This document shows, one piece after another, positions 1,565 to 29,167 of a DNA stretch of 64,000 bases (position 1 is the first letter of the stretch; the number at the start of each line of letters is the position of its first letter). A program made the translations under genes and the position numbers. Source of the stretch: Candidatus Gastranaerophilales bacterium (GTDB lineage Bacteria; Cyanobacteriota; Vampirovibrionia; Gastranaerophilales; JANQFW01); assembly GCA_028277625.1 (NCBI GenBank), contig JANQFW010000042.1, forward strand, positions 2,675 through 66,674, read 5' to 3'. The notes below the pieces were generated by a model that was given only the letters and a program-made list of their open reading frames with translations, was not told where the DNA came from and made no database searches.

Positions 1565-2800
1565 TTAACTTTTTTTAGTTAGTTCCTCAGCTAATACATT
1601 GTTTTGTGATTTGTTATTTAATAACATCTCGTACGCTTGAATTAAATATGTTTTTTGCTTTGTCCATTGCAGGTAGGAATTTATGCGCTCTAGCCCTGAC
1701 TGCTTCATTGCACTTCTAAGCTCTGAGTTGTCTAATAAACAAATTATTTTTTCTGCAAGGTCTTTGTGATCATTATTCTTCGCGTACAATGATGCATCTT
1801 GTGCTGAATAGCGCCCTTCTTTTAAATCAAACTGCACAATAGGCTTACCTAGAGCCATGTACTCCAGCACTTTATTCATTGTTGATTTATCATTCATTTC
1901 ATTATATTCATCCGGGTTTACGCATACATCTGCAGTGTTTAGATATTCCAGCATTTCTTTATCTGGGATTCTACCCGTGAATATAATGTGATCATCTAGT
2001 CCGAGCTTTGTACAATGAGCCTTTAATTCATTTAAGTAGGGGCCGCTGCCAATAATACAATATAAAATATCATCTCTATTTTTTTCTTTTAAAATATAGT
2101 TGGCCGCATTAATTAAATAATCAAGCCCTTCTTGTTTGCCTATTACGCCAAGGTAACCTACCATATATTTTTTGCCTTGTTTTAAAGCATTTATTGAGGG
2201 TTGAATTTTAATTCTTTTAAGGTCTGGACCACTTCTGACGATAAAAACCTTTTCCGGGTTCATACCGCAACGTTTTATTGCGATTTCTCTGTAAGATTCG
2301 TTTGTTGCAATAGAGATATCGCAACTTTTGTATGTTAATTTTTCTAATAAAACTAAAACGTCATAGAGAAATCCTCTTTTATTAAATTTTGCCTCGTAGA
2401 GTTCCGGGTTGATGTCGTGGTGGTCAAAAACAAACTTTTTGCCTAATAATTTGAATAAAAACCCTATTAAAAATATGTTGTCTGGTGGGTTGCAGGCATG
2501 TATTACGTCAAAGCCCTCTTTAAAAAGAATTTTTGTGGATAAAACTAATTCCCAAAATAAAGCACAGCTATACTCTATAACGTATGAAACTACGCCGGAA
2601 CCTTCATTTGGCATGGGGTGGCGATAAACAGATATATTATTAATTCTTTCAAAGCTTTTGTTGTAACCTTTTCCTTTTGGACAGATTATACTAACTTTAT
2701 AACCGGCTTCTGTAAGAGCATTGGCTTCTTGCCAGACTCTTGTATCGAATGGAACCGGTAAATTTTCTACGATTATGAGTATTTTACCAGCATAGTCCAT
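1565..2800 (-). CDS. Glycosyltransferase family 4 (WbuB-like)
   Basis: 411 aa. N-terminus ILIIVENLPVPFDTRVWQEANALTEAGYKVSIICP is typical of GT4/WbuB-type enzymes. C-terminal GT-B half contains PDEYNEMNDKSTMNKVLEYMALGKPIV. The start overlaps the upstream dehydrogenase stop by 17 nt, which indicates an operon. Confidence 0.85.
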   Translation of the reverse strand: MDYAGKILIIVENLPVPFDTRVWQEANALTEAGYKVSIICPKGKGYNKSFERINNISVYRHPMPNEGSGVVSYVIEYSCALFWELVLSTKILFKEGFDVIHACNPPDNIFLIGFLFKLLGKKFVFDHHDINPELYEAKFNKRGFLYDVLVLLEKLTYKSCDISIATNESYREIAIKRCGMNPEKVFIVRSGPDLKRIKIQPSINALKQGKKYMVGYLGVIGKQEGLDYLINAANYILKEKNRDDILYCIIGSGPYLNELKAHCTKLGLDDHIIFTGRIPDKEMLEYLNTADVCVNPDEYNEMNDKSTMNKVLEYMALGKPIVQFDLKEGRYSAQDASLYAKNNDHKDLAEKIICLLDNSELRSAMKQSGLERINSYLQWTKQKTYLIQAYEMLLNNKSQNNVLAEELTKKS

Positions 2801-4109
2801 TGTATTCTCCGATTAATTCTTTATCATGTTTTATTTTTACAAGGTCAATAACTGTTTTATCAGCTAAATTATTGGTTTGTGAATCTGAAACTTCGAATAT
2901 CTCTTGATACTCTTCTTCATTGTTAGATATAACAATAACTTCTGAGTTGTCTATAACTTCATTTAAGTTGCACAAAAGCTTTGATAAATGCGGAAGTTTA
3001 CTATCTATATAGCTCTTGTTGCTACCCATTAATCTTGAGAGTTGCACATGATTATCGTATATTCTTACTTCACATCCCTTGCCTATGAGTCTTTCTACTA
3101 TTTCAACTATAGGACTTTCTCTTAAGTCATCTGTGCCGGCTTTAAAGCTTAAGCCCAAAACCCCTATTTTTTTCTTTTCTGTTTTCAAAACCTCTTTTAG
3201 CGCAGTATCTTTTTGTATTTCATTGCTTCGAGAGATATTATTTATAACCGGTGTTTCTACGTTTAAGCCTTTAGATATGTTTACAAGTGCGCCTAAGTCT
3301 TTTGGTAGGCAAGAGCCCCCGTAAGCAAAACCCGGCCTTAAATAATATGGTGATATATTTAATTTTTTATCCATACAAAGTAAATTCATAACTTCATGAC
3401 TGTCTATGTTTAAGTTTTTACAAATATTTCCGACTTCATTTGCAAAAGTTATTTTTAGTGCATGGAAAGTATTGTTTACGTACTTTATAATTTCTGCGCT
3501 GTGAAAGCTTGTTTTGATAATAGGTGCATTAATATCGTTGTAGATTTTTGACATTATTTCTATTGCGTTATTAGATTCTGAGCCTAGCAGTGTAAAAGCA
3601 GGGTTAAAATAATCTTTTACTGCTGTGCCTTCTCTTAGGAATTCAGGATTTGAAACTATTGCAAAGTCTCTGTTTCTTTGCTTATTGCTGACTTGCTCGA
3701 TAATCGATGCTACATTAGCACCTGTGCCGGGCGGGACAGTGCTTCTTATTGCAATTGTGTGAAAGGAGTTTTTTTGGGTGAGAGCTCTTCCGATGTTTTC
3801 AGCGACCTTATAAATATTTTTTAGGTTAAGTTGCCCGCTCTCTGCGGCTGGGGTACTTACGCAAATGATAGATATATCTGTATTTGCAATTGCGTAGTCT
3901 GTATCGTCTGTTGCTTCTAAATTCTTGCTATTTCTGGCGGTGAATATTAATTCGTCTATTTGATTTTCTACAATTGTAGGAATGCCATTATTGATAAGTT
4001 CCACCTTGTGCTTATCAATATCTACCCCAATAATTTTATGGTCGTTTTTAGCTAAGCAGCCTGCGCTAACGCAACCTACGTAGCCAAGTCCAAAAATACT
4101 AATTTTCAT
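2784..4109 (-). CDS. algD: GDP-mannose 6-dehydrogenase-like nucleotide-sugar dehydrogenase
   Basis: 441 aa. Colinear end to end with my memory of P. aeruginosa AlgD. Matching segments: MKISIFGLGYVGCVSAGCLA, NPEFLREGTAVKDY, RPGFAYGGSCLPKD, GLSFKAGTDDLRESP and the terminal GLCW (AlgD ends GICW). The family assignment is very safe. The GDP-mannose specificity is inferred. Confidence 0.8.
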   Translation of the reverse strand: MKISIFGLGYVGCVSAGCLAKNDHKIIGVDIDKHKVELINNGIPTIVENQIDELIFTARNSKNLEATDDTDYAIANTDISIICVSTPAAESGQLNLKNIYKVAENIGRALTQKNSFHTIAIRSTVPPGTGANVASIIEQVSNKQRNRDFAIVSNPEFLREGTAVKDYFNPAFTLLGSESNNAIEIMSKIYNDINAPIIKTSFHSAEIIKYVNNTFHALKITFANEVGNICKNLNIDSHEVMNLLCMDKKLNISPYYLRPGFAYGGSCLPKDLGALVNISKGLNVETPVINNISRSNEIQKDTALKEVLKTEKKKIGVLGLSFKAGTDDLRESPIVEIVERLIGKGCEVRIYDNHVQLSRLMGSNKSYIDSKLPHLSKLLCNLNEVIDNSEVIVISNNEEEYQEIFEVSDSQTNNLADKTVIDLVKIKHDKELIGEYNGLCW

Positions 4110-7018: not shown

Positions 7019-7375
7019 ATGAGCTCACAATCATACGACGGCAAAATTACAACAAGCGGATCTTCGCAAGCAATCCGTATAATAAAATCATTTTTCGATG
7101 CGAATCCCGAATTCGAGCAAAAAGCCAATATCAAAGCTTATCCTATCGGAAAAGGGAAAGCACTTATTTCTGTTGTCCCTCAAAGTGAAGTTGAAAAAGA
7201 TGATAAGGAAGATCCTTTATTTGATTCCTTTTTAAGTTTTCTTGAAAAAGATATGATTGAAAATCCCCAAAATCTAACTCCCGTTTCTCAAAAAGACTTT
7301 AGTGCAACTAAAGATCTACTTGAAGGGGTTGAGGTTTCTGAGAATGATGAAATGCCGGAAGATTTTGAATTATAG
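7019..7375 (+). CDS. prlF: Type II antitoxin, PrlF (SohA) family
   Basis: 118 aa. The C-terminal half FDSFLSFLEKDMIENPQNLTPV...DEMPEDFEL is colinear with my memory of E. coli PrlF (AFLRFLDADIQNNPQKTRP...DDEIGDDE). It sits directly upstream of a YhaV-family toxin. Confidence 0.8.
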   Translation: MSSQSYDGKITTSGSSQAIRIIKSFFDANPEFEQKANIKAYPIGKGKALISVVPQSEVEKDDKEDPLFDSFLSFLEKDMIENPQNLTPVSQKDFSATKDLLEGVEVSENDEMPEDFEL

Positions 7376-7387
7376 AAGACAGGGTAG

Positions 7388-7846
7388 ATGCACGAAGACG
7401 GCTGGAAAATTTATTTTCATCCTGCATTTGAGCAGGTAAGGCAAAAATTAATTGAAGATGTTTTAACGTTGAAAGACAAAGACCCTATTAGTTATAAAAA
7501 GCATCCGAAAACAAAATTTTTAAAAAAGATAGATGATCTTATTTTTAAAGAAATACCGCTTGATCCTGCAAATGAAAATTATTTACAGGGAAATACATTA
7601 GGGAGTAAGCACAGACATTGGCGCAGAGCAAAATTATTTAAAAGATTCCGCTTATTTTTCAGATTTCACAGTGAGCATAAAATTATTATTTATGCATGGC
7701 TAAATGATACTAATTCACTAAGAAAAGCTGGCTCCAAGAATGACCCTTATAATCTTTTTGTAAAACGCTTAAAAAATGGAAATCCACCTGGAACTTGGGA
7801 TGACTTGCTAAAAGAGAGTTCTGTACCAACAAATTTACTGCTTTAA
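7388..7846 (+). CDS. yhaV: Type II toxin, YhaV family ribonuclease
   Basis: 152 aa. Contains GWKIYFHPAF, KDPISYKKHPKTKFLKKI, IPLDPANENYLQGNTLGSKHRHWRRAKL, RFRLFFRFHSEHKIIIYAWLND and the acidic/proline tail GNPPGTWDDLL. This matches the YhaV family pattern. Confidence 0.85.
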   Translation: MHEDGWKIYFHPAFEQVRQKLIEDVLTLKDKDPISYKKHPKTKFLKKIDDLIFKEIPLDPANENYLQGNTLGSKHRHWRRAKLFKRFRLFFRFHSEHKIIIYAWLNDTNSLRKAGSKNDPYNLFVKRLKNGNPPGTWDDLLKESSVPTNLLL

Positions 7847-8615: not shown

Positions 8616-10346
8616 ATGTACAAATTAAATAAAAATAAAATAAAATTCTCTTTGTTTATATTAATTCTGGGTTTAGCCGCTAATTATTTTATCTGCAGCT
8701 TTTTAGCAGCACACTCTCTGGTGTTAGCATTACCAATGCTTTTTATTGGAGGAATTACCTTTTACTTAATAGTTAACCTAATTTTGTATGCCAAGGCTAG
8801 CACTAATTTTGTATTGCTTTTATCAGTAGCAAACCTGCTTTTATTTTTAATATTACTATTTATTCCGTATTTTATATATGCAAAAGCCTTTTCTGTTGAT
8901 GCAAGCTTAATTATTGAAGTAAATTACATTGCAGCAACGTTAGCATACTCGTTTAGCGCAGGTATAACCAAGATTTCTATTGACAGCCAGGCACAAACAG
9001 AACAAAATATTCAAAAAATTATATCTCCAGAGTCAGATACACCCGAAAATAATGCTCCACAAGCTATAAATCCAACTGTAGAAATGCCTGAGCCGACTGT
9101 TCCGAATGAAATGGCTGCGGCTTCATCATCTGAGACCAGACAAGAAGAAGTTATAGAAGTAAACAGCTCTGAACCGGATAATAATATTGAACATAATGAA
9201 GAGCCAAGCGCTGAATCTATATATGGATCTGTTGATAGTGAAATTGAAGAAGAAGCAGACGTATTTTTAGAAGATGAGTCTTCAAGTTTATTAGGAGAAA
9301 CACCTTCTGCATCTTTAGACGAACTACCTGAAATTCAACTAGACGAAAATCAAATTAGGCAAAATGAGGAAGTTAACTATCCACCCTCTACACCACCAAA
9401 AGCAGCACCTTCAACTTCTAGTGATGGCGTGAAAGTTTATGAATTTGAAGATTACTCAGATGAGGACAATGAAGGAGAAGCTGAGGGCCTAAAAATATCG
9501 GGAAATATCAGAGTAGTTGAGGTACAAGAAAACGAAGAAGAAGCGCAAGGCTCAATCGCATCAATTGCAAAACTATTGGTAAACCAGCGAGATGTAGAAA
9601 ATGTAATCCAAATTAATGAAATTATGCAGCAAATCGGTTGTGATACCGGCAATACAAAAGTTGTTTCGATGAATAAAGGTATAGAAATTTATGAGTCATT
9701 TAATAAGCTAAAAGTTGATTACCCACAAATTAAAGACATGGCAATAGTTGAGCAAAATGGCTTTATTATTGCTTCATATTTTGAAAACAAAAGAAAAGAG
9801 CAGACCTGTTGTGCGTTAGGTTCTGGGATTTACCTCATTGTACAAAATTATTTAGCTCAGCTCAATTTGAGCCCTGAAAGAATTTTCTTTGTTTTTGATG
9901 ACCAAACAATTTCTATAAACAACCTGAATGATCAAGTATTCTATATGAGTTTTTCTAATACCCTTAATATACTTGAGTTTAATCAATCTGAAATATTCTT
10001 GAACAAGCAAAATATCACAGAATCTGATTATACTTCATTGCAACAAACAGATGGAATTAACAGAGCTATATTAACCCACAGCAATAAAACTGTGGTTAGT
10101 ATTTATAATGAGGATAATATCAAAAAATACACAAGTGTATCAAATGCAATTTATGACAATTTAAGAGTATTCCTTATGAACATATTAAAAGGAACTCTTA
10201 AGCATATTATTTTAAGCTGTGATAACGAGACCTTAGTGATTTCTAAAAAAGAACAGCAATTATTAATTTTAGGTTATGCCCCTGATTCAACGGTTAAAGT
10301 ATCAAACAAAATTAATGAAATAGAGAATTTAATAAGTAAGGACTAA
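8616..10346 (+). CDS. Membrane protein: 4 predicted TM helices, acidic/Pro-rich linker, two C-terminal Roadblock/LC7-like domains
   Basis: 576 aa.
- Hydrophobic segments lie in aa 12-118.
- A D/E/P/S-rich low-complexity region spans aa 125-310.
- aa ~355-447 (DMAIVEQNGFIIASYFE...CCALGSGIYLIVQNYLAQLNL...ERIFFVFDDQTISINNLNDQVFYMSFS) follows the strand-helix-strand pattern of MglB/Roadblock domains.
- aa ~470-558 (INRAILTHSNKTVVSIY...SNAIYDNLRVFLMNILKG...LKHIILSCDNETLVISKKEQQLLILGYAP) follows the same pattern.
- The stop lies 3 nt before the pilB ATG. Confidence 0.55.
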   Translation: MYKLNKNKIKFSLFILILGLAANYFICSFLAAHSLVLALPMLFIGGITFYLIVNLILYAKASTNFVLLLSVANLLLFLILLFIPYFIYAKAFSVDASLIIEVNYIAATLAYSFSAGITKISIDSQAQTEQNIQKIISPESDTPENNAPQAINPTVEMPEPTVPNEMAAASSSETRQEEVIEVNSSEPDNNIEHNEEPSAESIYGSVDSEIEEEADVFLEDESSSLLGETPSASLDELPEIQLDENQIRQNEEVNYPPSTPPKAAPSTSSDGVKVYEFEDYSDEDNEGEAEGLKISGNIRVVEVQENEEEAQGSIASIAKLLVNQRDVENVIQINEIMQQIGCDTGNTKVVSMNKGIEIYESFNKLKVDYPQIKDMAIVEQNGFIIASYFENKRKEQTCCALGSGIYLIVQNYLAQLNLSPERIFFVFDDQTISINNLNDQVFYMSFSNTLNILEFNQSEIFLNKQNITESDYTSLQQTDGINRAILTHSNKTVVSIYNEDNIKKYTSVSNAIYDNLRVFLMNILKGTLKHIILSCDNETLVISKKEQQLLILGYAPDSTVKVSNKINEIENLISKD

Positions 10347-10349
10347 TAA

Positions 10350-12365
10350 ATGTCGACCAGAAAAAACTTGCTTAACGAGCTTTTGCTGGAAGCTCAAATA
10401 TTAAATAAAGATCAATTAGGTATTATAAACGAAAAAAAAAGTAAATCTGACAAACCTTTCCTTGAGCTGATTAGCGAAACAGCAAGCTTGGATAAAAATG
10501 AGCTTAGCAATCAGTTAAAAGATTTGTTAGAGTTGCAATACGGTGTTGCTTTTATTGAGCTGGCTAATGCTCAAATTGACGAAGATCTGATAAATGTCTT
10601 CTCAGTGGACTTAATAAAGAATCATAAATTTTTGCCGCTAGGGCAAAGCGGTAATATGTTTACACTTGCAATGACTGACCCTGATAACCTTGTTGCGGAT
10701 CAAGATATCAACTTTAGGTTGCAAAACAACAATTTTAAAGATTATAAAATAAAAAAAGTAGTTATTTTTGAAGATGACTTTGACAACTACGCTAGCAGCA
10801 AATTTGCAAAAAAAGAATCTGCAAATCAGGAAATTGAGCAAGATACAGATGAATTGATATCCTCAATAGGTATTGAAGTAGAGCAAGCTACTGCAGATAT
10901 ATCTGATGATGTATCTGACCTGATGAATTCTGCGCAGGAAGCACCTATTATTCAGCTTGCAAATAGCATCCTGGGTGTTGCAATAAAAAGGGGGGTTAGT
11001 GATATCCATATTGAGCCCAGGGAAAAAGAGTTGCAGGTTAGATACAGGCTCGACGGTGTTCTTAGTATTTATAAAATACTTCCTAAAAAAATTCAAAACT
11101 CAATTACATCAAGATACAAAATTATGTCTGAGCTTGATATCTCTGAAAGAAGACTGCCGCAAGACGGTCGTATCAGAGTGAAAATGTCAAATAAAATGGT
11201 TGACTTTAGGGTGTCAACTCTACCAAGCAAGTTTGGCGAAAAAATAGTTATGCGGATTCTGGATAAGTCTAATATTTCTCTTGGGCTAGATCAATTAATA
11301 ACTAACCCTGAAATATTAGAACTGGTAAGAGAAATGATTAGTCGTCCATACGGTATTATATTTGTAACAGGACCAACAGGAAGCGGCAAGACAACTACTT
11401 TGTATAGTGCCTTAAGCGAAAGAAATACACCGCAAGTAAACATATCAACAGCAGAAGATCCTATTGAATATGACCTTGATGGTATAACCCAGTCTGAGGT
11501 GAATAAAGTAATTGGTATGGATTTTGCCAAGATATTAAAAGCGTTTTTAAGACAAGATCCCGATATAATGCTAGTTGGAGAAACAAGGGATAAAGAAACT
11601 GCTAAAATTGCTATTGAAGCGGCATTAACAGGTCACCTTGTATTTACTACACTCCACACAAACGATGCACCAAGTTCTATTATGAGGCTTGAGGAAATGG
11701 ATATTGAGCCATTTCTTATATCTAGCTCAATCATAGGTGTTATTGCCCAGCGACTGCTGCGCCGAATTTGTTCAAATTGTAAAGAATCGTATGAACCTGA
11801 TCTTGAAATGCTAAAGTTTCTGGGAGTTGAAAATTTTTCAAATAAGACTTATTACAGGTCAAAAGGTTGTGATAAGTGTAATAACACCGGCTATAAAGGT
11901 CGAGTTGGTGTCTATGAAGTTATGAAAGTTACAGACGAGTTAAGAGACTGCATCTCAAAAGGAGTAAATACTGCAATTTTGAAATATCAAGCTCAACAAT
12001 CCGGTATGAAAACACTGCTTGAGTACAGTTTGGATATAGCAAGAGAAGGCCATACAACCCTTGATGAAGTTATTAGGGTTACCTTTACATCTGAAGGACA
12101 ATCGTCAATGTGCCCGAACTGTAGCAAACCTGTTGGAGACGAATTTTATAAATGTCCGTTTTGTCAGCATGATCTCAAAAAGACTTGTCCTAAATGCAAA
12201 TCGATACTTCAAGAAGGTTGGTCAAATTGCGCAAAATGCGGATTTAATACTTCTGAAGTAATAACAGAATCAGTTTGCCCAACATGTAGCGGCGACATTG
12301 CATTAGAGATGAACGAGTGTCCATGGTGCTTTACCACGTTAGCAGAATTAAACTTAAATAAATAA
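10350..12365 (+). CDS. pilB: Type IV pilus assembly ATPase PilB (GspE family) with C-terminal triple zinc-ribbon extension
   Basis: 671 aa. N-terminal T2SSE_N-like domain. Walker A GPTGSGKTTTLY. Asp/His boxes (EDPIEY, LRQDPDIMLVGETRD, TGHLVFTTLHTND). The usual tetracysteine CSNC...CDKC is present. An extra 85-aa tail carries six CxxC pairs. Confidence 0.9.
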   Translation: MSTRKNLLNELLLEAQILNKDQLGIINEKKSKSDKPFLELISETASLDKNELSNQLKDLLELQYGVAFIELANAQIDEDLINVFSVDLIKNHKFLPLGQSGNMFTLAMTDPDNLVADQDINFRLQNNNFKDYKIKKVVIFEDDFDNYASSKFAKKESANQEIEQDTDELISSIGIEVEQATADISDDVSDLMNSAQEAPIIQLANSILGVAIKRGVSDIHIEPREKELQVRYRLDGVLSIYKILPKKIQNSITSRYKIMSELDISERRLPQDGRIRVKMSNKMVDFRVSTLPSKFGEKIVMRILDKSNISLGLDQLITNPEILELVREMISRPYGIIFVTGPTGSGKTTTLYSALSERNTPQVNISTAEDPIEYDLDGITQSEVNKVIGMDFAKILKAFLRQDPDIMLVGETRDKETAKIAIEAALTGHLVFTTLHTNDAPSSIMRLEEMDIEPFLISSSIIGVIAQRLLRRICSNCKESYEPDLEMLKFLGVENFSNKTYYRSKGCDKCNNTGYKGRVGVYEVMKVTDELRDCISKGVNTAILKYQAQQSGMKTLLEYSLDIAREGHTTLDEVIRVTFTSEGQSSMCPNCSKPVGDEFYKCPFCQHDLKKTCPKCKSILQEGWSNCAKCGFNTSEVITESVCPTCSGDIALEMNECPWCFTTLAELNLNK

Positions 12366-12387: not shown

Positions 12388-13467
12388 ATGTTACTAGAAG
12401 AATTATTACAGTTAGTATTCCAAAAGGGGGGAAGTGACTTACACATATCAGTAGGTTTACCTCCTGTAATAAGGGTTGATGGAAAACTTATTAGAACAGA
12501 CCATCCACCTCTCACTAAAGAAGATGTTCAAAGATTAATATTTAGTATGTTGAATAACGAACAAAGACGAAATTTGGAGCAAAACTGGGAACTGGATTGC
12601 AGTTATGGTGTTTTTGGTTTAGGACGATTTCGTGTTAACGTATATAAAGAACGGGGAAACTACGCAGCAGCACTGCGTACAATTAACTCAGAGGTGCCCA
12701 GTTTTGAGCAACTTGGCTTGCCTTCTGTGGTTAAGGAAATTGCTGAAAGGCCTCGTGGCTTAATCCTGGTTACAGGCCCGACCGGTAGCGGTAAGTCTAC
12801 TACACTTGCTACTATGATAGACCACATTAACCAAACCCGTAAAGAACATATTTTAACAATTGAAGATCCTATTGAATTTTTACATACATCCAAGCGCTGC
12901 ATTGTACACCAACGTGAATTAGCACAAGACACTCGAAGTTTTAGCAATGCGTTAAGAGCAGCTCTTCGTGAAGATCCTGATATTATACTTGTTGGTGAGC
13001 TTCGTGACCTTGAAACTATTTCTTTGGCTCTAACTGCAGCTGAAACAGGTCACCTTGTAATGGGAACGCTTCATACCTCATCTGCTAGCCAAACAGTTGA
13101 CCGTATAGTTGATGTATTCCCGGCAGAGCAGCAACAACAAATTAGAGTTCAGCTGTCTAACAGTTTAGTGGCAGTATTTAGTCAGACATTAGTACCTAAA
13201 CTTGACCATACTGGCCAGAAAAAAGGTAGGGCTCTTGCTCAAGAAATTATGGTAGTAACACCTGCGATTGCTAACCTAATTAGAGAAGGTAAAACTGCAC
13301 AAATATACTCTGCGATTCAAACAGGTGGTGCCCAAAAAATGCAAACACTGGAAAATACTTTAAGAGACCTTTATCAGAAAAAACTAATAACCTATGATGA
13401 TGCATTATCAAAAACAAGCCGTCCTGAAGATCTAAAAAGAATGCTTGGCAGTGGTGCATCTGTCTAA
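12388..13467 (+). CDS. pilT: Twitching-motility retraction ATPase PilT
   Basis: 359 aa. Contains GGSDLHISVGLPPVIRVDGKL, LIFSMLNNEQRRNLEQNWELDCSYGV, GPTGSGKSTTLA, REDPDIILVGELRD, TGHLVMGTLHT and the AIANLIREGK motif. Confidence 0.95.
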   Translation: MLLEELLQLVFQKGGSDLHISVGLPPVIRVDGKLIRTDHPPLTKEDVQRLIFSMLNNEQRRNLEQNWELDCSYGVFGLGRFRVNVYKERGNYAAALRTINSEVPSFEQLGLPSVVKEIAERPRGLILVTGPTGSGKSTTLATMIDHINQTRKEHILTIEDPIEFLHTSKRCIVHQRELAQDTRSFSNALRAALREDPDIILVGELRDLETISLALTAAETGHLVMGTLHTSSASQTVDRIVDVFPAEQQQQIRVQLSNSLVAVFSQTLVPKLDHTGQKKGRALAQEIMVVTPAIANLIREGKTAQIYSAIQTGGAQKMQTLENTLRDLYQKKLITYDDALSKTSRPEDLKRMLGSGASV

Positions 13468-13608
13468 ATATAATATTTTAGCCAAAAGTATCCCCCTTGC
13501 TAAGGGGTAAGGGGGGCAAAATAATTATCACTATTAGCAACTTACTTTGTACAAATAGCTGTGGATAACACTTTTAGACTTTTTCCCTGAAAACATAGGA
13601 GTGGTTTT

Positions 13609-14851: not shown

Positions 14852-15499
14852 TTATCTAAATAGAGGCTTTCTTGTTGAATTCAAAAAAGTGGTCATATTT
14901 TTGTATTGACCATTAGCTCTGTTTATAGAATTACCTGCAGCAGCAAAGTTAAAGTTTGGCTTGGTTGCCAATAAAACTTTACAGTCATTAGGTTTGTTTG
15001 TAGGCTTTTTGTCGTTTCTTGTTATAAAATTTCTGATTTTGGATGCTGAGTAGTTTCTTACTATTGGTATAACGGTACCAACACTTATTAGTGTTGCAAA
15101 CAGATTGCCAACCATAGTAGCACCTTTTTGAAACTTTTGAAGTTCGCTGCCTTTAGTGCTAAGTTCTTGTTGGATTTTATCCAAAGAATAATCTTTGCAA
15201 GATTTTGGCAGAAGTTTACCTTTTGCTACAGCCTTTTTGAATACAGCTTCAAAAGGGCTAGTAAAAGCTAAAAACAAACTGAAGGTAATAATTCCTTCTA
15301 CTATCTCTTGTGGGACTAGAAACTTTTTTTCGTGGTTAGATATTTTATCATTAATACAGACTGCAATGGTTTCTGCGATTGATGAAACACCAAGAGTTAA
15401 GGCCATTGATCTTGATAAAAATTTTGCAGGATCTTTGGTATAGCAGTTGCCGCATTTTTTTGCAAACGAGTATATATTTTTAAACACTGGGTTAGCCAT
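14852..15499 (-). CDS. Hypothetical membrane protein (paralogue of the upstream ORF)
   Basis: 215 aa. Two hydrophobic segments and an AKGKLLPKS loop. The start overlaps the stop of ORF 15492-16079 by 8 nt. No recognisable family. Confidence 0.45.
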   Translation of the reverse strand: MANPVFKNIYSFAKKCGNCYTKDPAKFLSRSMALTLGVSSIAETIAVCINDKISNHEKKFLVPQEIVEGIITFSLFLAFTSPFEAVFKKAVAKGKLLPKSCKDYSLDKIQQELSTKGSELQKFQKGATMVGNLFATLISVGTVIPIVRNYSASKIRNFITRNDKKPTNKPNDCKVLLATKPNFNFAAAGNSINRANGQYKNMTTFLNSTRKPLFR

Positions 15500-16079
15500 T
15501 ATTTAGCTTGCCCCCTGCTTTATTTTTCTTTTTATATTTTTCTGGGAATATTTTTTTCAGAATATTATTAATCAAATAGTTTGTAAGGGGCAGGTCTACA
15601 CTAAACATTGAAATAACAGTTACTGCTATACTAGTTGTATGCTTGACACCATCAGCCAATTTTTTATCCATAAGCAACTCTTTAGGGAGTTTACCATTTT
15701 TGGCTAGCTGATCCCAAATTTTTGCAGTTCCCCACCTTGTACAGATGCCAACACTGGCACCGGCAACTATTTTAGCTAAGGTCTTAGCTAGCGAACATTT
15801 TCTGGTCTCATCGGTTTCTTTTCTATTAGAATACCAATCCATAGCGGGCTGAGAGCTTAACTCGATAGCAGCTACTACTGCCCTTTGTTGATAAGGTTTT
15901 AGCCCGCCAAGTTTTTTAAGAAGACCAGCACCTTTATCACCTACAGTTATTTTAGGAAATGAATCAGCAATATTGCTTGTAATTCTTTCCATTGTGCTGC
16001 CTTTAAATGCTTGGTTTTCTGTTTTATTTATCTGTGTTCTTTCCCGAAGTCTTTTAGAATTATTTCTTAACGCTATCAT
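15492..16079 (-). CDS. Hypothetical membrane protein (paralogue of the downstream ORF)
   Basis: 195 aa. Same architecture as 14852-15499: a helix, a loop, a TM segment, AKNGKLPKEL, then a TM segment ending in a basic tail. The true start may be the internal MERITSN. Confidence 0.45.
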   Translation of the reverse strand: MIALRNNSKRLRERTQINKTENQAFKGSTMERITSNIADSFPKITVGDKGAGLLKKLGGLKPYQQRAVVAAIELSSQPAMDWYSNRKETDETRKCSLAKTLAKIVAGASVGICTRWGTAKIWDQLAKNGKLPKELLMDKKLADGVKHTTSIAVTVISMFSVDLPLTNYLINNILKKIFPEKYKKKNKAGGKLNNG

Positions 16080-18489: not shown

Positions 18490-21318
18490 ATGTTACAGAT
18501 CCTAGATTTCATCCTTTCAAAGTTTAGCAAAATTTCTCTTATTATCGTTGAAAAAATAATCAATACAATTATTTATATTTTAAATATATTTCGTACTAGT
18601 TTTTATCTAAATAAAGCTGAAAAAAATATCAAAGAAGAAAATTATGAACTTGGAATTAAAAATTTGGAGAAAGCTGCAAGGTACGTTGATAACAATAGTA
18701 CAGGAGAGAGGTATTACATTATTCACTATAAAACTGGCAAGTGTTACTTTCACCTTGCACAGAAAAAAAATGATATAGAGAGTTACAAAAAAGCAAAAAA
18801 TCATTTTGAGAAAGCTATTATTAAATTTTCTTATTATGACAAGAGTGAATATAAAAAATTAAACAAATTCTTAATGAATATAAAAGATAATATTTTTAAA
18901 TATGAGTACAAGCAATATAATTTTGATAGTACCAAAATCAGAAATTCAATAGATAATATAAAGGAAGCACTTGAAGGTTATAAATTTGACTCTTCTGATA
19001 AACTACAAGCCCTAATATATGCTGAAATACAAAGTAACTTAGCTACTTGTTATACTAAAGAATTAGAAAATGAAAATAACAATGATTATATTAAAAAGGT
19101 TCTACTCGCATATCATGAATGCTTAAGAGTTTATAGCCCAAGCGAATACACGGAAAAATATCTAAATAATATTGAAAAACTAGGTGTCTTTTATATAAAC
19201 AACATGTCTAGCAACCAGGATAATTTATCTACTGCTATTAATCATTTAAACAATGCTCTTCACATTTATTTATCCAATTTTAAAGCTTACGAAAGAGAAG
19301 TATCAAGAATAAACTATTATCTGGGAAAAGCTTTTTATAAAATGGGAAAAATTGAAAACTCAAAAGATAACTATAATAAAGCTATTGAATGTTTAAAGCT
19401 AGCAAATAATGATTCTGTGAAAAAAGAAGAATCCGAAAAATTAGCTCAAATACTTGATTTAAAAGGATTATGCTATATGAAACTTTTTAAGTTAATCGAT
19501 AACAAAGCAAATCTGGAAAAATCCAATAAATCCTACGAGGAGGTTTTATCAATTTATCAGTCAGGTAAATCTGACGATAAACTATTAAGACTATGTTACG
19601 TTCGTTGTCATATAGGATTAAATTACTTAAACTTGGCAAAAATTGAGAACGTACAAATTAACTTGGACAACGCGTTAAATAAATACATGCAGGCGTTTAA
19701 TGATTATGAAAACATTATCAAAAATACAAATGAAAACAGACTGCTGGAAATTAATAAAAAAGACAAAATTAAGTACGAAGCCTGCTATCATAGAAGCCGT
19801 ATTTATCTTTTTAAAGCAGAAGTGAAAGATACAAAAGAAAATATAGGCTATGCATTAGAGGACATAGAAGAATCTAAAAAGTCAATTCCATCTAAGGTTG
19901 AGCCTGAATTTATTTGTAAGCTATCAAGCGTCAGGGCAAAAGCTTTAACAATAAAAAGTGAACTTGTGGATAGAGGTAAAAACTTAGAATTAGCAAATGA
20001 AAATATTAGCTGCTCGATCGATAACATAAATAAGGAAAAAAATCCTATTTATTATTCTAACTTTATGAATAGAAAAGGAGATATTTTTATAGAATTGTCT
20101 CATATTAGAAAAAAAAATAAACAGTTAAAAACAGCTGAAGAGGCTTATGAAGAAGCTTTAAGTATTAAAACTCTTGAAAAATATCCTATAGGAAATGCTA
20201 TTACTCATAAAAAGCTGGTTAATTTGTTTATTGAAAAAGCAAAAATTAAAAACACTCAGGAGAATTTAGATGAAGCTTGCAAGCATATTAAAAATGCAAA
20301 TGTTTTTTGTTCTAAAATAGTAAATCTCCCTTATGAACTTGGTAAAATATATGTTCACTGTGGCCAAATTCAACATTTATTCAGCAAAATCAAAAAAAAC
20401 TATAATGGTTATAGCAATGCAAGTGAAGCATCTTTTAATAAAGCTCTAGATATATTTACATCAGAAAATTTTCCCATTTGGCATACGAAAATTGAATATC
20501 AGTTGTGTGATTTAAAAATTACAATAGTAAAAATTGACTATATAAAAAATAAAGAGAATAAGCTAGACAAAGAGATACTTATAGACACTATATTTAAACT
20601 TGAAGACATTCTAAAAATTATGAAAGATCAGGGTTACATTTATAAGCAAGCAAAAATTTGCAGCAAACTTGCAGATTGTTACTTAATGCTAGCATCAGAT
20701 GATATAATTGGAGATAAAGAATCAAAGCATCTTGAAAGTGCTGAAAACTACTTAAATGAGACACAGAATATATTTAAACCTGACTCTAGCCCTTTAGATT
20801 ATTCTGATCTAGCCAATAGACTGGGGTATTTGTCTTATTTAAAATATTTAGAACATTCTAATAATGAAAATCTGTTTAATGAAGCAGAAAAATATTATAA
20901 AGAGGCGCTGGACAAAAGACCTTTCAAAGATTATCCGATACATCAAGCTTATATACTTGAAAATATGGGAGACTTATATTTGGAAAAAGCCTCAAAGGTT
21001 GAAAGCAGTGAAGGCTCTCAAAGATATAAGGATAATGCTAAAGATTGCTACGAAAAAGCGATGTCTGTATTTATCTCGGAAAACTATGTTCATGACATAG
21101 AAAATTTGAGAACCAAGTTGGAAAAAGCATACTTACACGATATATTAATTAATGATGAGCTAAGAAGTAGTTCTATTAACGATGTATTAACCAGTAAAGA
21201 TTTAACAAGCAAATACATTGATGATATATTAAAAAATGACAAGCTAAAAGATCTTATAGAGAAAGAGATTAATCGTAGTGAATCAGCAATACAGCTAAAA
21301 AATCAGGGTGATAAATAG
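18490..21318 (+). CDS. Large TPR-like helical-repeat protein, function unknown
   Basis: 942 aa. GGAGG lies 9 nt upstream of the ATG. Hydrophobic N-terminus. Many roughly 34-40-aa helical units of the form A..Y...A/L...P (e.g. AEEAYEEALSIKTLEKYP, AEKYYKEALDKRPFKDYP). Confidence 0.55.
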   Translation: MLQILDFILSKFSKISLIIVEKIINTIIYILNIFRTSFYLNKAEKNIKEENYELGIKNLEKAARYVDNNSTGERYYIIHYKTGKCYFHLAQKKNDIESYKKAKNHFEKAIIKFSYYDKSEYKKLNKFLMNIKDNIFKYEYKQYNFDSTKIRNSIDNIKEALEGYKFDSSDKLQALIYAEIQSNLATCYTKELENENNNDYIKKVLLAYHECLRVYSPSEYTEKYLNNIEKLGVFYINNMSSNQDNLSTAINHLNNALHIYLSNFKAYEREVSRINYYLGKAFYKMGKIENSKDNYNKAIECLKLANNDSVKKEESEKLAQILDLKGLCYMKLFKLIDNKANLEKSNKSYEEVLSIYQSGKSDDKLLRLCYVRCHIGLNYLNLAKIENVQINLDNALNKYMQAFNDYENIIKNTNENRLLEINKKDKIKYEACYHRSRIYLFKAEVKDTKENIGYALEDIEESKKSIPSKVEPEFICKLSSVRAKALTIKSELVDRGKNLELANENISCSIDNINKEKNPIYYSNFMNRKGDIFIELSHIRKKNKQLKTAEEAYEEALSIKTLEKYPIGNAITHKKLVNLFIEKAKIKNTQENLDEACKHIKNANVFCSKIVNLPYELGKIYVHCGQIQHLFSKIKKNYNGYSNASEASFNKALDIFTSENFPIWHTKIEYQLCDLKITIVKIDYIKNKENKLDKEILIDTIFKLEDILKIMKDQGYIYKQAKICSKLADCYLMLASDDIIGDKESKHLESAENYLNETQNIFKPDSSPLDYSDLANRLGYLSYLKYLEHSNNENLFNEAEKYYKEALDKRPFKDYPIHQAYILENMGDLYLEKASKVESSEGSQRYKDNAKDCYEKAMSVFISENYVHDIENLRTKLEKAYLHDILINDELRSSSINDVLTSKDLTSKYIDDILKNDKLKDLIEKEINRSESAIQLKNQGDK

Positions 21319-21468
21319 ATATTATAGAAAAACATATTAAAAATGAACATTAAATATTATCGATGCTATTGAAGCAAAAAAATAATAATGTTAGAATCAA
21401 TAAATAGAAATAATATTAAATTTAGAGCTAAAAAATATTTATTTAATATATGCAGCCTGGAGAATTTT

Positions 21469-21903
21469 ATGATCAGAAATTTAACTTTTATTAAAACAAT
21501 TTTAATGAAAGGTGTAATAGATAAAGAGGAAATGCATCGACTAGTGGAAGAATATCAAGAAGATGCGTTTTCAATATTGCAGCATCTTGTAACAGAAAGC
21601 CCGCACAGAAAAGAAGAATTTGCAAGGCTATGGGGCGATTCTTTAGGCTTGAGTTACGTAAATCTTAAAAAAACTTTTTTCCAAAAAGATGTAATGTTTA
21701 AAATTCCGCAGGATTATGCAATGGAAAACAAAGTAATTGCAATTTATCAATTTGGTCACGTTACTACAGTAGCACTTTCTGACCCTACTCATCCTTTTTT
21801 AAAAGAAGATGTTGCTAAGTATTTGAATACGCCTGTTAATGTTGTTTTTTCTATGCCCGATGAAATTGAAGATGCGATATTTAGCCAATATCAATCTGAT
21901 TAA
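21469..21903 (+). CDS. Stand-alone T2SSE_N (GspE/MshE N-terminal)-like domain protein
   Basis: The track ORF starts at 21388. I prefer the ATG at 21469, which has GGAGA 6 nt upstream. The sequence GVIDKEEMHRLVEEYQ...LGLSYVNLKKTFFQKDVMFKIPQDYAMENKVIAIYQFGHVTTVALSDPTHPFLKEDVAKYLNTPVNVVFSMPDEIEDAI follows the N-terminal domain pattern of PilB/GspE. No ATPase domain is attached. Confidence 0.6.
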   Translation: MIRNLTFIKTILMKGVIDKEEMHRLVEEYQEDAFSILQHLVTESPHRKEEFARLWGDSLGLSYVNLKKTFFQKDVMFKIPQDYAMENKVIAIYQFGHVTTVALSDPTHPFLKEDVAKYLNTPVNVVFSMPDEIEDAIFSQYQSD

Positions 21904-25905: not shown

Positions 25906-26643
25906 TTACAGTGGTTTTTTTTTGGGTAATCCTGTTCGTCTTGGATATTTATCTGGTGTGATAGATTTTTTTTGGACTATAATTAAATTTCTTGTTATTG
26001 AGTCTTTTTCTGGAAGTTTGTAGTCTATTTTTTTAATAAATTCACCGCCCAAAATATGCAACGCATTTTGAGATTCTAACAATTCGTCATTAACACTGAA
26101 TGCTTTGTATGCAATAAAATAACCATCTTTTTTAACGAATGGTAGACAATACTCAGACAAAGCATTCAGTTTGCCAACTGCTCTTGAGACACATACGTCG
26201 AATAGTTCTCTATAATTAGCATTTCTTGCCAGCTCTTCTGAGCGAGTGTTTAAAATTTCTATTTTATTTGGCAAGCTTATTTTTGTGAGTAGCTCTTCTA
26301 AAAATTTTGTTTTTTTGCCAACAGAATCAACTGCGCATATTTCTAAATTTGGAAAAACTATTGCAAGTGCAAATGAAGGAAACCCCCCACCTGTACCTAT
26401 ATCTATTAACTTACTAGGTTTATCAAAATTTAGGTAGTTAGTAACCAAGCCAAAAGAGAGTGAGTCTATGAAATGCTTGACAAAGACTGTGTCGATCTTG
26501 GCATCACTCACTATGTTAGTATGGAAATTATATTCATTCAAAAATTCCCAGTATTTGTAAAAATTATCAAGCTGCTCTTGCGATAATGCAATATTAAACG
26601 ATTGCGCTGATTCTTGCAGAAAATTTAGTTTATCTTGCTTCAT
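25906..26643 (-). CDS. rsmG: 16S rRNA (guanine527-N7)-methyltransferase RsmG (GidB)
   Basis: 245 aa. SAM motif IDIGTGGGFPSFALAIVFP and a C-terminal RNLIIVQK block. The start overlaps the upstream ATPase-TPR stop by 14 nt. Confidence 0.9.
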   Translation of the reverse strand: MKQDKLNFLQESAQSFNIALSQEQLDNFYKYWEFLNEYNFHTNIVSDAKIDTVFVKHFIDSLSFGLVTNYLNFDKPSKLIDIGTGGGFPSFALAIVFPNLEICAVDSVGKKTKFLEELLTKISLPNKIEILNTRSEELARNANYRELFDVCVSRAVGKLNALSEYCLPFVKKDGYFIAYKAFSVNDELLESQNALHILGGEFIKKIDYKLPEKDSITRNLIIVQKKSITPDKYPRRTGLPKKKPL

Positions 26644-29167
26644 TTTTCCTTTTAATTTCTTTTAAATATTCGTTAAATTTTTTCTCACCTAGTTCATTAA
26701 ATAATAATCGGAGCTTTCTTTCAATTCTTTCTTTTGAATCTGTTGAGATTGTTTTGCCTAAAACCTTTTGTGCTCTGATAAAAAACTTTAGAGTATTGGC
26801 ATATTGTTTTATATTTAGATAATATTCACCTACATCTAAATAAGCTCGTGATATCCAATAAGGATCATTTGATGATTTAGCTATTTTTATTTCTTCGTTA
26901 AAGCACTTTATGGCTGCTGAATGATTTTCCTTTTCATAATAAATATTACCAAGAATTGAATATGTTTTAAATAAGCCTTCGTAGTTATTATTATTTTGAT
27001 CAACCAATAATGATTTTTTATAAAAATGAATAGCTTTTTCCAGATCATTTTTTTCATCAAAAATAGATGCAAGGTTAAAATAAGAGTCTGACAAGTTGGG
27101 ATTATTTTCTGAATTTGTTATTTGCGTATTGAGCTTATAATATTTTAAAGCTTTTGGAGGCTGCTTTATATCATCGTAGATTAAAGCTAAATTAAAATAT
27201 AATAATGCTTTTACTTTGTCATCGAGTTTTGCATCTTTAATTGCTTCTACTAAATGATAGTATTTTAAGGCATTATCATAATCTTTTTTGTAGCTATAAA
27301 TATTAGCTATACCTAAAAGTGTACTAGCTAAAAGCATATCTGGCATGTGGTGTTGAAAATTTAGCATTTCATTATAAATATTCAATGCGTTGTTGTGCTT
27401 GTAGCTGGCCATATAAATTTCTGCCAGCTGGGTTTGACATTCAAGCATGAAGTCAAGCTCACCTGTGGCTGAAGAAATATTTATAGCTTTTTGCAGATGA
27501 TTAATGGCCTCTTCTTTTTTGCGTTGAGAATATAAGGATTGTGACAAATTTTTATACTGCACCGCAAAATTTTGCTCATTAGAGCTATTATCTGGCAATT
27601 GTGGCACATTTAGATGCTGAACTTCTGCATCTTTTAAGCTATTTAATTCCGCTAAATTATCAGCTTGCATTATAGAGTTGATTGCTTCATTCTGAAACGA
27701 GTCGGCATCCAAAAGTTTCAATTCATCTTGAGTTAATTGTGCAACTATATCTTCCTCTATTTGACTAGCTATCTCATTTACGGATTGATTATCTTGTACT
27801 AGCTCATTATTTTTAGTGGGCAAAACTTGCATATTAGCTATATCATAAAATTCTGGGCTATATTGTTCTTGTAGGGATGAATATATTAACAATTCCGGCG
27901 AGAACTCTTTTTTTATTCCTGTTGCGCGAGGTGTTTTTATTACGCCATTGTTAAATAAATAATTATAGTGATAATATTGCTCTGTATGCATGAGCTTACG
28001 TGATATTGGGATGGTTCTTTCTTTTAGTGTTTTTGAAATTTCCTTGGTGTAAAGATTATAGATAAACTTATGGTGCTCTATTTGCTTTTCTTTGGGGATT
28101 AAATTAATTATTATGTTTTTTATGTAGTCTTTTACGCAATAAGAGTCATTAGCATAGGCAATAAGTTTAGTTGACTTTAGATAATCAAGCTGATCTTGAA
28201 GGTTGGTTATGGTAAATATATTTTTAATTGAATGGGTTTTAAGTGGATGTCTGATTAGCGTTAGGACGTGCAGTACGTTTTTTTGACTATCTGATAAAGA
28301 ATTATAAAAATCCTTTATAATAAAATCATCAAAAGCGTCTTCTTGCATAAAGTAATTTTTAGCCAGGTCAAACGGCTCAATCTTCATTAAATTTAGTGCA
28401 TTAACAAACCATAATAAAGTTTCTGGGTAGCCGTGTGTGATTTCGTAAATTTTTGGGAGCAGATGGTCGGGAATGTCTTTTGATATTTGCTTTAAAAAAT
28501 TTATAGACTGCTCTTTATCGAGTCCACTTAGCTTTATATCATTAATAAACTCGTTTCTTATACCAATATTAGAAATGGGTATATGCTGACCTGCAATTAG
28601 CAGTTTGAGGTCAGGCACTGATGCTAGGTACCTTAAAAATACTAATATGTCTTCTTTAATTTCTGTATTATCTTTTATTAGGCGATCAAAATCATCTATC
28701 GTTACTAACAAAGGTCTCTTTAAGGTCTTTAAATAACTGAAAAGCTTTTCATCTATGCTGTTGTTTATATTATTTATGTCAGTACGTTTAGTTTCTTTTA
28801 TTTCAAGCTTTTTATTAAAAAAATTATAAAAAGATAAAATTATATCATCAAGGTTAGTAATTGCCGAGCAGGTATAATAAAAATGCAAAACCTGGTTATC
28901 TACAAACTTATTAACTGCTCTTATCAAGGTTGTTTTGCCAACACCCTGCAAGCCCCTGACAAATATTAGTTTTTCTTTGCCGGAGTTAAGAGTTTCCAAT
29001 ATATCAAGGATAATGTCTTTTCTGTCTGACAAAGTGTAGAGCATGTCTGTGCTGGCTTTGTTAAAGCGCGCGAGTTTACAAAGTTGCTTAAACTCTTTAT
29101 TGTCATACTCTTGGTATGAATTTATTTTTGCTAATATGTTTTTGTTAACAAAAGTATTTTTCGACAT
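26630..29167 (-). CDS. P-loop NTPase (AAA/STAND-like) fused to C-terminal TPR array
   Basis: 845 aa. Walker A VRGLQGVGKTTL. Walker B-like PLLVTIDDFDRL. A helical middle region. At least 6 TPR units in the last ~300 aa (e.g. YDNALKYYHLVEAI, PPKALKYYKLNTQI, LEKAIHFYKKSLLV). Confidence 0.65.
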   Translation of the reverse strand: MSKNTFVNKNILAKINSYQEYDNKEFKQLCKLARFNKASTDMLYTLSDRKDIILDILETLNSGKEKLIFVRGLQGVGKTTLIRAVNKFVDNQVLHFYYTCSAITNLDDIILSFYNFFNKKLEIKETKRTDINNINNSIDEKLFSYLKTLKRPLLVTIDDFDRLIKDNTEIKEDILVFLRYLASVPDLKLLIAGQHIPISNIGIRNEFINDIKLSGLDKEQSINFLKQISKDIPDHLLPKIYEITHGYPETLLWFVNALNLMKIEPFDLAKNYFMQEDAFDDFIIKDFYNSLSDSQKNVLHVLTLIRHPLKTHSIKNIFTITNLQDQLDYLKSTKLIAYANDSYCVKDYIKNIIINLIPKEKQIEHHKFIYNLYTKEISKTLKERTIPISRKLMHTEQYYHYNYLFNNGVIKTPRATGIKKEFSPELLIYSSLQEQYSPEFYDIANMQVLPTKNNELVQDNQSVNEIASQIEEDIVAQLTQDELKLLDADSFQNEAINSIMQADNLAELNSLKDAEVQHLNVPQLPDNSSNEQNFAVQYKNLSQSLYSQRKKEEAINHLQKAINISSATGELDFMLECQTQLAEIYMASYKHNNALNIYNEMLNFQHHMPDMLLASTLLGIANIYSYKKDYDNALKYYHLVEAIKDAKLDDKVKALLYFNLALIYDDIKQPPKALKYYKLNTQITNSENNPNLSDSYFNLASIFDEKNDLEKAIHFYKKSLLVDQNNNNYEGLFKTYSILGNIYYEKENHSAAIKCFNEEIKIAKSSNDPYWISRAYLDVGEYYLNIKQYANTLKFFIRAQKVLGKTISTDSKERIERKLRLLFNELGEKKFNEYLKEIKRKNEAR

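Follow-up and report, generated by a model that had tools for sequence, protein, structure and literature searches.

The 64,000-nucleotide (nt) stretch of contig JANQFW010000042.1 analyzed here, hereafter the window (positions 2,675 to 66,674 of the contig; assembly GCA_028277625.1 of a Candidatus Gastranaerophilales bacterium), encodes, directly upstream of the type IV pilus motor genes pilB, pilT and pilC, a 576-amino acid (aa) protein that belongs to the Roadblock/LC7 superfamily by the evidence of both its fold and family-level profiles. The Roadblock domain itself is well known, and in bacteria it is familiar from small, soluble proteins that act as partners of Ras-like GTPases. The novelty lies in the architecture, in which a four-helix membrane anchor, an acidic tether, a conserved motif and a tandem of Roadblock domains are joined in one chain, and in the strictness with which, in a single uncultured lineage, the gene is coupled to pilB; no description of such a membrane-tethered tandem Roadblock protein was found in full-text literature searches. 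In gut-type Melainabacteria, the protein probably serves the pilus motor as an adaptor or regulator specific to this lineage.

The protein is a member of a family of divergent homologues that was revealed when 1.84 billion cluster representatives were scanned exhaustively with HMMER, which retrieved 44 proteins at E≤1e-3, 42 of these at E≤1e-10; the family, as referred to below, consists of these 44 representatives, clustered at 50% identity. Word-indexed homologue searches returned only three close relatives or none, probably because the low-complexity linker of the protein swamps the word index. The family members are mostly 520–660 aa long and align with the query from end to end at 23–34% identity. 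The MYK N-terminus and the four hydrophobic helices are kept family-wide and, given that this N-terminus and the whole architecture persist across the 44 representatives, the open reading frame (ORF) is a real gene rather than a chance ORF. Taxonomy was obtained, by a contig scan with patterns specific to close relatives, for two such relatives (68–69% identity), both of which come from metagenome-assembled genomes of Candidatus Gastranaerophilales, that is, non-photosynthetic Melainabacteria; the assemblies GCA_028282645.1 and GCA_028280605.1 (Melainabacteria) are among the carriers of the gene, as are the contigs Ga0074198_1000010 and Ga0334895_1000007 of 590–680 kilobases. One candidate member, P0046 (1025 aa, E 6e-5), was set aside as an outgroup, being a protein with a single C-terminal Roadblock domain whose gene does not adjoin pilB. 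Neither Pfam nor NCBIfam has a family for the protein, which carries no name from any source; without such a model, the family members stay annotated as "hypothetical".

Architecture of the protein family

The query sequence alone matches nothing in Pfam or NCBIfam, and the Roadblock domains become visible only in family-level scans. When the members were scanned one by one, 32 of the 44 matched PF03259 (Robl_LC7), with a best E-value of 1.9e-15, and 10 matched the related MAPKK1_Int/LAMTOR3 family; the curated 23-bit cut-off of PF03259 was reached in 7 of 10 sampled members. The best PF03259 stretch falls within domain 1 in some members (P0034, 40 bits) and within domain 2 in others (P0015, P0036). 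Searched against the PDB, the family profile retrieved for domain 1 the Asgard Roadblock proteins 9jue and 7yh1 at E ~1e-5, along with dynein LC7, and for domain 2 the Roadblock protein 7f8f, at E 0.0025 with the whole C-terminal profile and at E 0.021, still as the best match, with a domain-2-only profile. The two domains match each other in a profile-profile comparison with hhalign (95.7% probability, E 3.8e-9, 97 columns), which indicates that they arose by duplication.

Structural modeling leads to the same assignment. An AlphaFold2 model of aa 305–576, built from a 26-sequence alignment, has a predicted template modeling score (pTM) of 0.77, with 45 of the 272 residues disordered, and a predicted local distance difference test (pLDDT) score of 85–93 over aa 350–576. 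The element order helix-strand-strand-helix-strand-strand-strand occurs twice in the model, with an extra C-terminal helix in the second copy. At E≤1e-3, a Foldseek search of the PDB returned Roadblock and longin proteins only, and those matched with probability 1.00 include Asgard Roadblock3, MglB, LAMTOR2/3 (p14/MP1), dynein LC7 and a Streptomyces Roadblock protein, with template modeling scores (TM), normalized to the target, of 0.6–0.8 and root-mean-square deviations (rmsd) of 1.8–2.7 Å over ~95 residues; the multi-longin proteins Mon1/Ccz1 are also among the matches. Thus, the Roadblock assignment is well supported for both modules by the profiles and the predicted structure. The initial annotation of this DNA, made from the sequence alone, placed two C-terminal modules at 9678–9956 and 10023–10289 (aa 355–447 and 470–558) and read them as Roadblock/LC7 domains of the MglB type. 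The modules are indeed present, at aa 352–447 and 470–575 of the model, and the fold that was proposed for them is found in 32 of the 44 members by Pfam and twice in the AlphaFold model; the likeness to MglB, however, holds at the level of the fold and not at that of the sequence.

The pTM of 0.77 suggests that the two domains may be packed as an intramolecular pseudo-dimer, which would be equivalent to the homo- or heterodimers of MglB, LAMTOR2/3 and dynein LC7. Within the Roadblock domains, conservation is strongest in the α2 helices, which make up the platform face in known Roadblock dimers such as those of the MglB and LAMTOR structures, and in the β1-β2 hairpin of domain 1.

The N-terminal part of the protein (aa 1–125) bears out the four hydrophobic helices listed in the initial annotation. 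Hydropathy analysis detects three strong hydrophobic helices and a weaker one, with the fourth helix being strongly hydrophobic in most relatives, and the AlphaFold model of the full-length protein contains four helices, at aa 6–29, 39–57, 63–89 and 104–121, with pLDDT of 85–97, as well as two short strands in the outer loops. The N-terminal tail (MYKLNKNKIK) is rich in lysine and the 58–62 loop is basic, and both outer loops are short and nearly uncharged. Four helices and the positive-inside rule together predict an N-in/C-in topology, in which both termini and, with them, the Roadblock modules are on the cytoplasmic side. For the membrane domain, neither Pfam nor the PDB gave a sequence match; an internal duplication of a helix-strand-helix unit was undetectable by hhalign, and the fold search with the full-length model for relatives of this domain brought up Roadblock and longin matches only.

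The membrane domain is followed by the acidic, proline-rich linker of ~185 aa that was noted at the outset. Its residues 126–310 include 20.5% Glu and 5.9% Asp (26% Asp+Glu) and 8.6% Pro, for a net charge of -42, and it is disordered in the full-length model (pLDDT <50). The linkers of the relatives range in length from ~70 to 266 aa, and almost all of them are acidic. Two short conserved motifs occur within it, LxxLP at aa 234–238 (9315–9329) and I-S..IRVxE at aa 294–302 (9495–9521), and a short strand is predicted at aa 273–276 in the full-length model.

The segment just ahead of the Roadblock domains is the most conserved of all, at 3.04 bits per column compared to 1.9–2.5 for the Roadblock elements. 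Its consensus is G-K-I-S-S-I-G-K-L-L-V-N-x-R-D-I-E-N-I-I-E (with x as an alternative in position 2), where E328 is invariant, and I317, D326 and I331 are each conserved at 98%. The motif is predicted to be helical and is not confidently packed in the models (pLDDT <50), a behavior typical of partner-binding elements. By eye, the stretch IGKLLVNxRDIENIIE resembles the 'LGxLLV...I' pattern and might be taken for one half of the cyclic di-GMP (c-di-GMP)-binding motif of the MshEN/PilB N-terminal domain. The profiles do not support this candidate: hhalign comparison of the pre-domain motif with the PilB N-terminal alignment gave only a five-residue match, ISSIG, with a probability of 0.6%, and Pfam searches of the motif at E≤10 detected no match, MshEN included. 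The pentapeptide in question (IASIA in the query) lies at aa 314–318 (9555–9569) and is preceded by an acidic run; ISSIG is also present in all relatives at a conserved spot of PilB, ~aa 170–174 (~10857–10871), but the profile comparison is not significant. The shared pentapeptide could be a coincidence or a common short linear motif.

Coupling to the pilus motor genes

The stop codon of the Roadblock gene, TAA at 10344–10346, is followed by a second TAA (10347–10349) and then by the ATG of pilB at 10350, so that the gap is exactly 3 nt, as the initial annotation had it. A Shine-Dalgarno-like AAGGA (10338–10342) lies within the final codons of the Roadblock ORF, 7 nt ahead of the pilB ATG; the G+C content of the window is ~32%.

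This arrangement is not peculiar to the window. We collected the DNA around family members from assemblies and Joint Genome Institute (JGI) metagenomes and located PilB, PilT and PilC by tblastn. In 19 of the 19 informative loci (those with sufficient sequence downstream), the window counted and the relatives being at 25–70% identity, pilB is directly downstream of the Roadblock gene on the same strand. The synteny with pilB that the initial annotation named as a check thus holds, with no counter-example within the family. The association extends to the most distant member, P0045, and to downstream PilB proteins with 37–94% identity to that of the window; the gap between the two genes in the relatives is ~2–33 nt. 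The pilT and pilC genes come next in every locus where the contig continues (13 loci). Throughout the family, the gene is the first of a unit that consists of the Roadblock gene, pilB, pilT and pilC.

In the locus of the most distant family member (L026), the four-helix part (1506–2183) and the Roadblock part (2212–3993) are encoded by adjacent ORFs that are split in the low-complexity linker, and pilB starts 3 nt after the second, Roadblock-encoding ORF. The two ORFs could be truly separate or could result from a frameshift in the assembly.

The upstream side is variable. In 5–7 loci, it is occupied by spoIID and murJ, and in the window and the closest relatives, by a gene encoding a CxxCxxCC protein and a variable toxin-antitoxin island. 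In the window, this island (7019–7846, plus strand) is located between a dCMP deaminase gene and the CxxCxxCC gene. It contains PrlF/YhaV in the window and in the relative's locus L003, and PemK/MazE together with an HI1420-type helix-turn-helix pair in L001 (7221–8299).

Scanning for promoters found promoter-like sites at the frequency expected from shuffled sequence, and the terminator scan was likewise uninformative. The top sigma-70-like match (13445–13474, plus strand; 11/12, with TTGGCA, an 18-nt spacer and TATAAT) lies across the 3' end of pilT and the start of the 141-nt interval that separates it from pilC, which hints at a possible internal promoter for pilC. PilB itself carries a double zinc ribbon at its C-terminus (12111–12329, PilB aa 588–660; also matched by UPF0547 and Zn_ribbon_3), which is present in the relatives too.

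Table 1 Features of the tandem Roadblock protein and the adjacent motor genes (window coordinates)
Feature	Coordinates	Strand	Basis
Tandem Roadblock membrane protein gene, 576 aa, stop included	8616–10346	+	ATG start; ORF list
Four-helix N-terminal membrane domain, aa 1–125, predicted N-in/C-in	8616–8990	+	Hydropathy and AlphaFold
Acidic, proline-rich disordered linker, aa 126–308	8991–9539	+	Composition; pLDDT <50
Helix-turn-helix motif (predicted), most conserved element of the family, aa 309–339	9540–9632	+	Conservation of family alignment
Roadblock/LC7 domain 1, aa 352–447, α-β-β-α-β-β-β	9669–9956	+	Model pLDDT 85–93; profile and PF03259 matches
Roadblock/LC7 domain 2, aa 470–575, α-β-β-α-β-β-β and C-terminal helix	10023–10340	+	Model; hhalign to domain 1
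Junction with pilB: Shine-Dalgarno-like AAGGA (10338–10342), tandem stops TAA TAA (10344–10349)	10338–10349	+	Direct reading of sequence
pilB, extension ATPase, 671 aa	10350–12365	+	Pfam T2SSE 4e-132; N-domain MshEN 1e-12; C-terminal double zinc ribbon DZR 4e-7
pilT, retraction ATPase, 359 aa	12388–13467	+	Pfam T2SSE 9e-50
pilC, inner-membrane platform protein, 410 aa	13609–14841	+	Pfam T2SSF 7e-74

Candidate roles at the pilus motor

The reading that we favor, with about as much confidence as doubt, is that the protein is a membrane-tethered adaptor that would bind a component of its co-encoded pilus motor and either recruit PilB and/or PilT or gate their access. We infer this regulatory or docking role from the architecture and the gene order. 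The points that we count in its favor are the architecture and fold, the adjacency to pilB in 19 of 19 loci, the lack of a nearby GTPase, the conservation in the pre-domain motif and the α2 helices, and the pTM value. Under the proposed mechanism, the anchor would hold the cytoplasmic tandem Roadblock platform at the inner membrane through the flexible acidic tether; the platform and the conserved helical motif would bind PilB and/or PilT, or else the cytoplasmic face of PilC; and the ATPases would be recruited to the pilus base or their access to it would be controlled. The protein would then be a lineage-specific accessory subunit of the motor with no need for a dedicated small GTPase, and might have taken over part of the cytoplasmic-platform role of PilM/PilN or GspL.

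Known Roadblock dimers serve as platforms for diverse partners: MglB binds MglA, the LAMTOR dimers bind Rag GTPases and the LAMTOR1 helix, and LC7 binds a helix of the dynein intermediate chain (PMC10933270; PMC3747258), and Roadblock dimers that lack the C-terminal helix bind a helix of a partner (PMC10933270). In archaea, genes for Roadblock proteins are common in type IV pilus loci (PMC4858521). For a Gastranaerophilus genome, the named pilus genes comprise pilA, pilB, pilC, pilT and pilD but not pilM, pilN or pilO (PMC5877343). The archaeal loci and this gene list both fit a direct link between the Roadblock protein and the motor. A more specific version, to which we hold only tentatively, is that the Roadblock pseudo-dimer binds hexameric PilB and/or PilT without a small GTPase and gates their access to PilC, and perhaps replaces the PilM/PilN ring in Melainabacteria. 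If true, regulation of a type IV filament motor by a Roadblock platform would be seen here for the first time.

The closest counterparts in sequence and structure are archaeal. The Roadblock/LC7 proteins of archaea (arCOG02603 in the archaeal type IV pilus loci; Asgard 9jue, 7yh1 and 7f8f) provide the best profile and structure matches and share the association with pilus loci (PMC4858521), but they are small, soluble, single-domain proteins, for which no anchor, tether or tandem fusion has been described. In its organization, the protein would resemble Ragulator, a membrane-anchored platform of Roadblock dimers that recruits NTPases; LAMTOR2/3 are among the top fold matches, and the MAPKK1_Int matches of the 10 family members point in the same direction. 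Ragulator, however, is a eukaryotic complex of separate chains (LAMTOR2/3 and LAMTOR4/5), held at the membrane through the lipidation of another subunit, LAMTOR1, and its clients are Rag GTPases with Roadblock domains of their own. Any resemblance would be mechanistic only, and the protein described here is not a member of Ragulator. PilM/PilN and GspL are likewise membrane-tethered cytoplasmic modules that are encoded with the motor and dock the ATPase to the inner-membrane platform, a role analogous to the one proposed here. They differ in having an actin-like fold (PilM and GspL), a single membrane helix and periplasmic domains, and the Roadblock protein shows no Pfam match and no fold similarity to the PilM, PilN or GspL families.

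Several observations weigh against the adaptor reading. The Roadblock protein evolves much faster than the motor proteins: between close relatives, it is 68% identical, compared to 93–98% for PilB, PilT and PilC, which is unusual for a core subunit. The characterized bacterial Roadblock proteins, MglB, MglC and CvnB, are parts of small-GTPase modules. Finally, a GTPase partner might be encoded elsewhere in the genome, a possibility that follows from a survey of prokaryotic Ras-like GTPases, in which MglA was present in 200 of the 238 genomes that have MglB homologues and one of its groups, group 5, was represented in Cyanobacteria (PMC4316618).

The main alternative, possible if somewhat doubtful, is that the protein is a membrane-tethered MglB-like GTPase-activating protein (GAP), guanine nucleotide exchange factor (GEF) or platform for such a distantly encoded MglA-type GTPase, which, in place of the Roadblock protein, would contact PilB/PilT and set the place and time of pilus formation as in Myxococcus and Thermus. 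Besides the genomic co-occurrence of MglB and MglA, this alternative draws on the likeness to MglB of Myxococcus xanthus and Thermus thermophilus, the GAP of MglA, which has the same fold (TM 0.65–0.71 and rmsd ~1.8–2 Å in the Foldseek comparison), is linked to type IV pilus motility and forms a two-domain Roadblock platform, and on the observation that Roadblock and longin dimers are generic platforms for GTPases (PMC3747258; PMC10933270). Yet, MglB is a soluble, single-domain protein that forms a homodimer and is encoded by a gene paired with mglA, whereas the protein described here joins two Roadblock domains, by way of a long acidic tether, to four membrane helices, with no GTPase nearby, and it is pilB itself that is the conserved partner in the gene order. 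Furthermore, the family profile does not retrieve the MglB chain from the PDB at E≤1 although it finds archaeal Roadblock proteins and dynein LC7, so that the similarity is structural only. On all these counts, the protein is not a member of the MglB family.

The initial annotation stated that no MglA-like GTPase gene is present in the window, and this is borne out. A P-loop motif scan of all ORFs of the 64-kilobase (kb) window detected only PilB, PilT and three large proteins, and Pfam searches with the main window ORFs of at least 100 aa found no Ras- or MglA-like GTPase, detecting in this respect only the translational GTPase BipA (36250–38052) and a STAND NTPase. The observation extends to the surroundings of ~20 relatives, where no small ORF with an N-terminal P-loop was found within, at most, 10 kb a side, several contigs being much shorter. 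In Asgard archaea, the GTPase and Roadblock genes are usually in different operons (PMC10933270), and therefore, the missing adjacency is weak evidence against an MglA-type partner. Another known bacterial system with a Roadblock protein in a membrane-associated complex is the Streptomyces conservon CvnA-D, in which CvnB is the Roadblock protein. The conservon, however, consists of four separate proteins, namely, a membrane histidine kinase, a DUF742 protein, a GTPase and the Roadblock protein, and none of these partners was found near the gene: its conserved neighbors are pilB, pilT and pilC alone, joined on the upstream side of some loci by spoIID and murJ. The protein is not a CvnB, nor is it a homologue of PilM, PilN or GspL.

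We consider it unlikely that the protein is a signal-transducing sensor, in which the four-helix domain would read a membrane cue, such as the pilin pool, the state of PilC, lipids or membrane potential, and relay it through the tether to the Roadblock module, altering motor activity. Such a role would be compatible with the very high confidence of the membrane domain model (pLDDT 85–97), with the conserved polar or special positions of this domain (LP...G, N...Y.KA and INP), which are not those of a generic anchor, and with the separate membrane and Roadblock ORFs in one relative, which speak for modularity. Nevertheless, the periplasmic loops are predicted to span ~9–14 residues in the full-length model and hence leave no room for a ligand-binding ectodomain; the disordered linker of variable length (70–266 aa) is a poor conduit for a conformational signal; and there is no match to a known sensor fold or family. 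That the protein has nothing to do with pili and acts, for example, in the cell envelope, with the adjacency to pilB reflecting shared transcription or inherited order only, is highly improbable: the presence of spoIID and murJ upstream in 5–7 relatives and the divergence far exceeding that of PilB, PilT and PilC would accord with such a function, but the upstream genes vary and are different in the window and its closest relatives, with spoIID-murJ being set off from the gene by >300 bp and an ORF on the opposite strand, whereas the pilB junction is invariant (19/19), with very short gaps.

On the adaptor reading, a family that is locked to pilB-pilT-pilC with no GTPase nearby suggests another connection of the ancient NTPase-platform fold to the type IV pilus motor. 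The protein is a candidate for a role in pilus organization or regulation in the non-photosynthetic relatives of cyanobacteria, may help explain what the Roadblock genes do in the type IV pilus loci of archaea, and gives a way to test whether a Roadblock protein can function independently of a GTPase.

Other genes in the window

Converging on pilC are two overlapping ORFs on the minus strand (14852–16079; 215 and 195 aa), which match nothing in Pfam or NCBIfam and do not resemble pilins. Among the large genes of the window are two adjacent ones for HEAT-repeat proteins of 725 and 784 aa (38125–42678, minus strand), one for an 845-aa STAND NTPase that contains TPR repeats (26630–29167, minus) and one for a YhdP/AsmA-like protein of 1519 aa (56363–60922, plus). 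In addition, ~6.5 kb downstream of pilC and just after the gene for a 942-aa TPR protein (18490–21318, plus strand), there is a gene for a stand-alone MshEN protein of 171 aa (21388–21903, plus strand; Pfam 2.8e-7), which aligns to positions 3–137 of the PilB model TIGR02538. This protein might regulate the pilus motor, either by binding c-di-GMP or by mimicking PilB.

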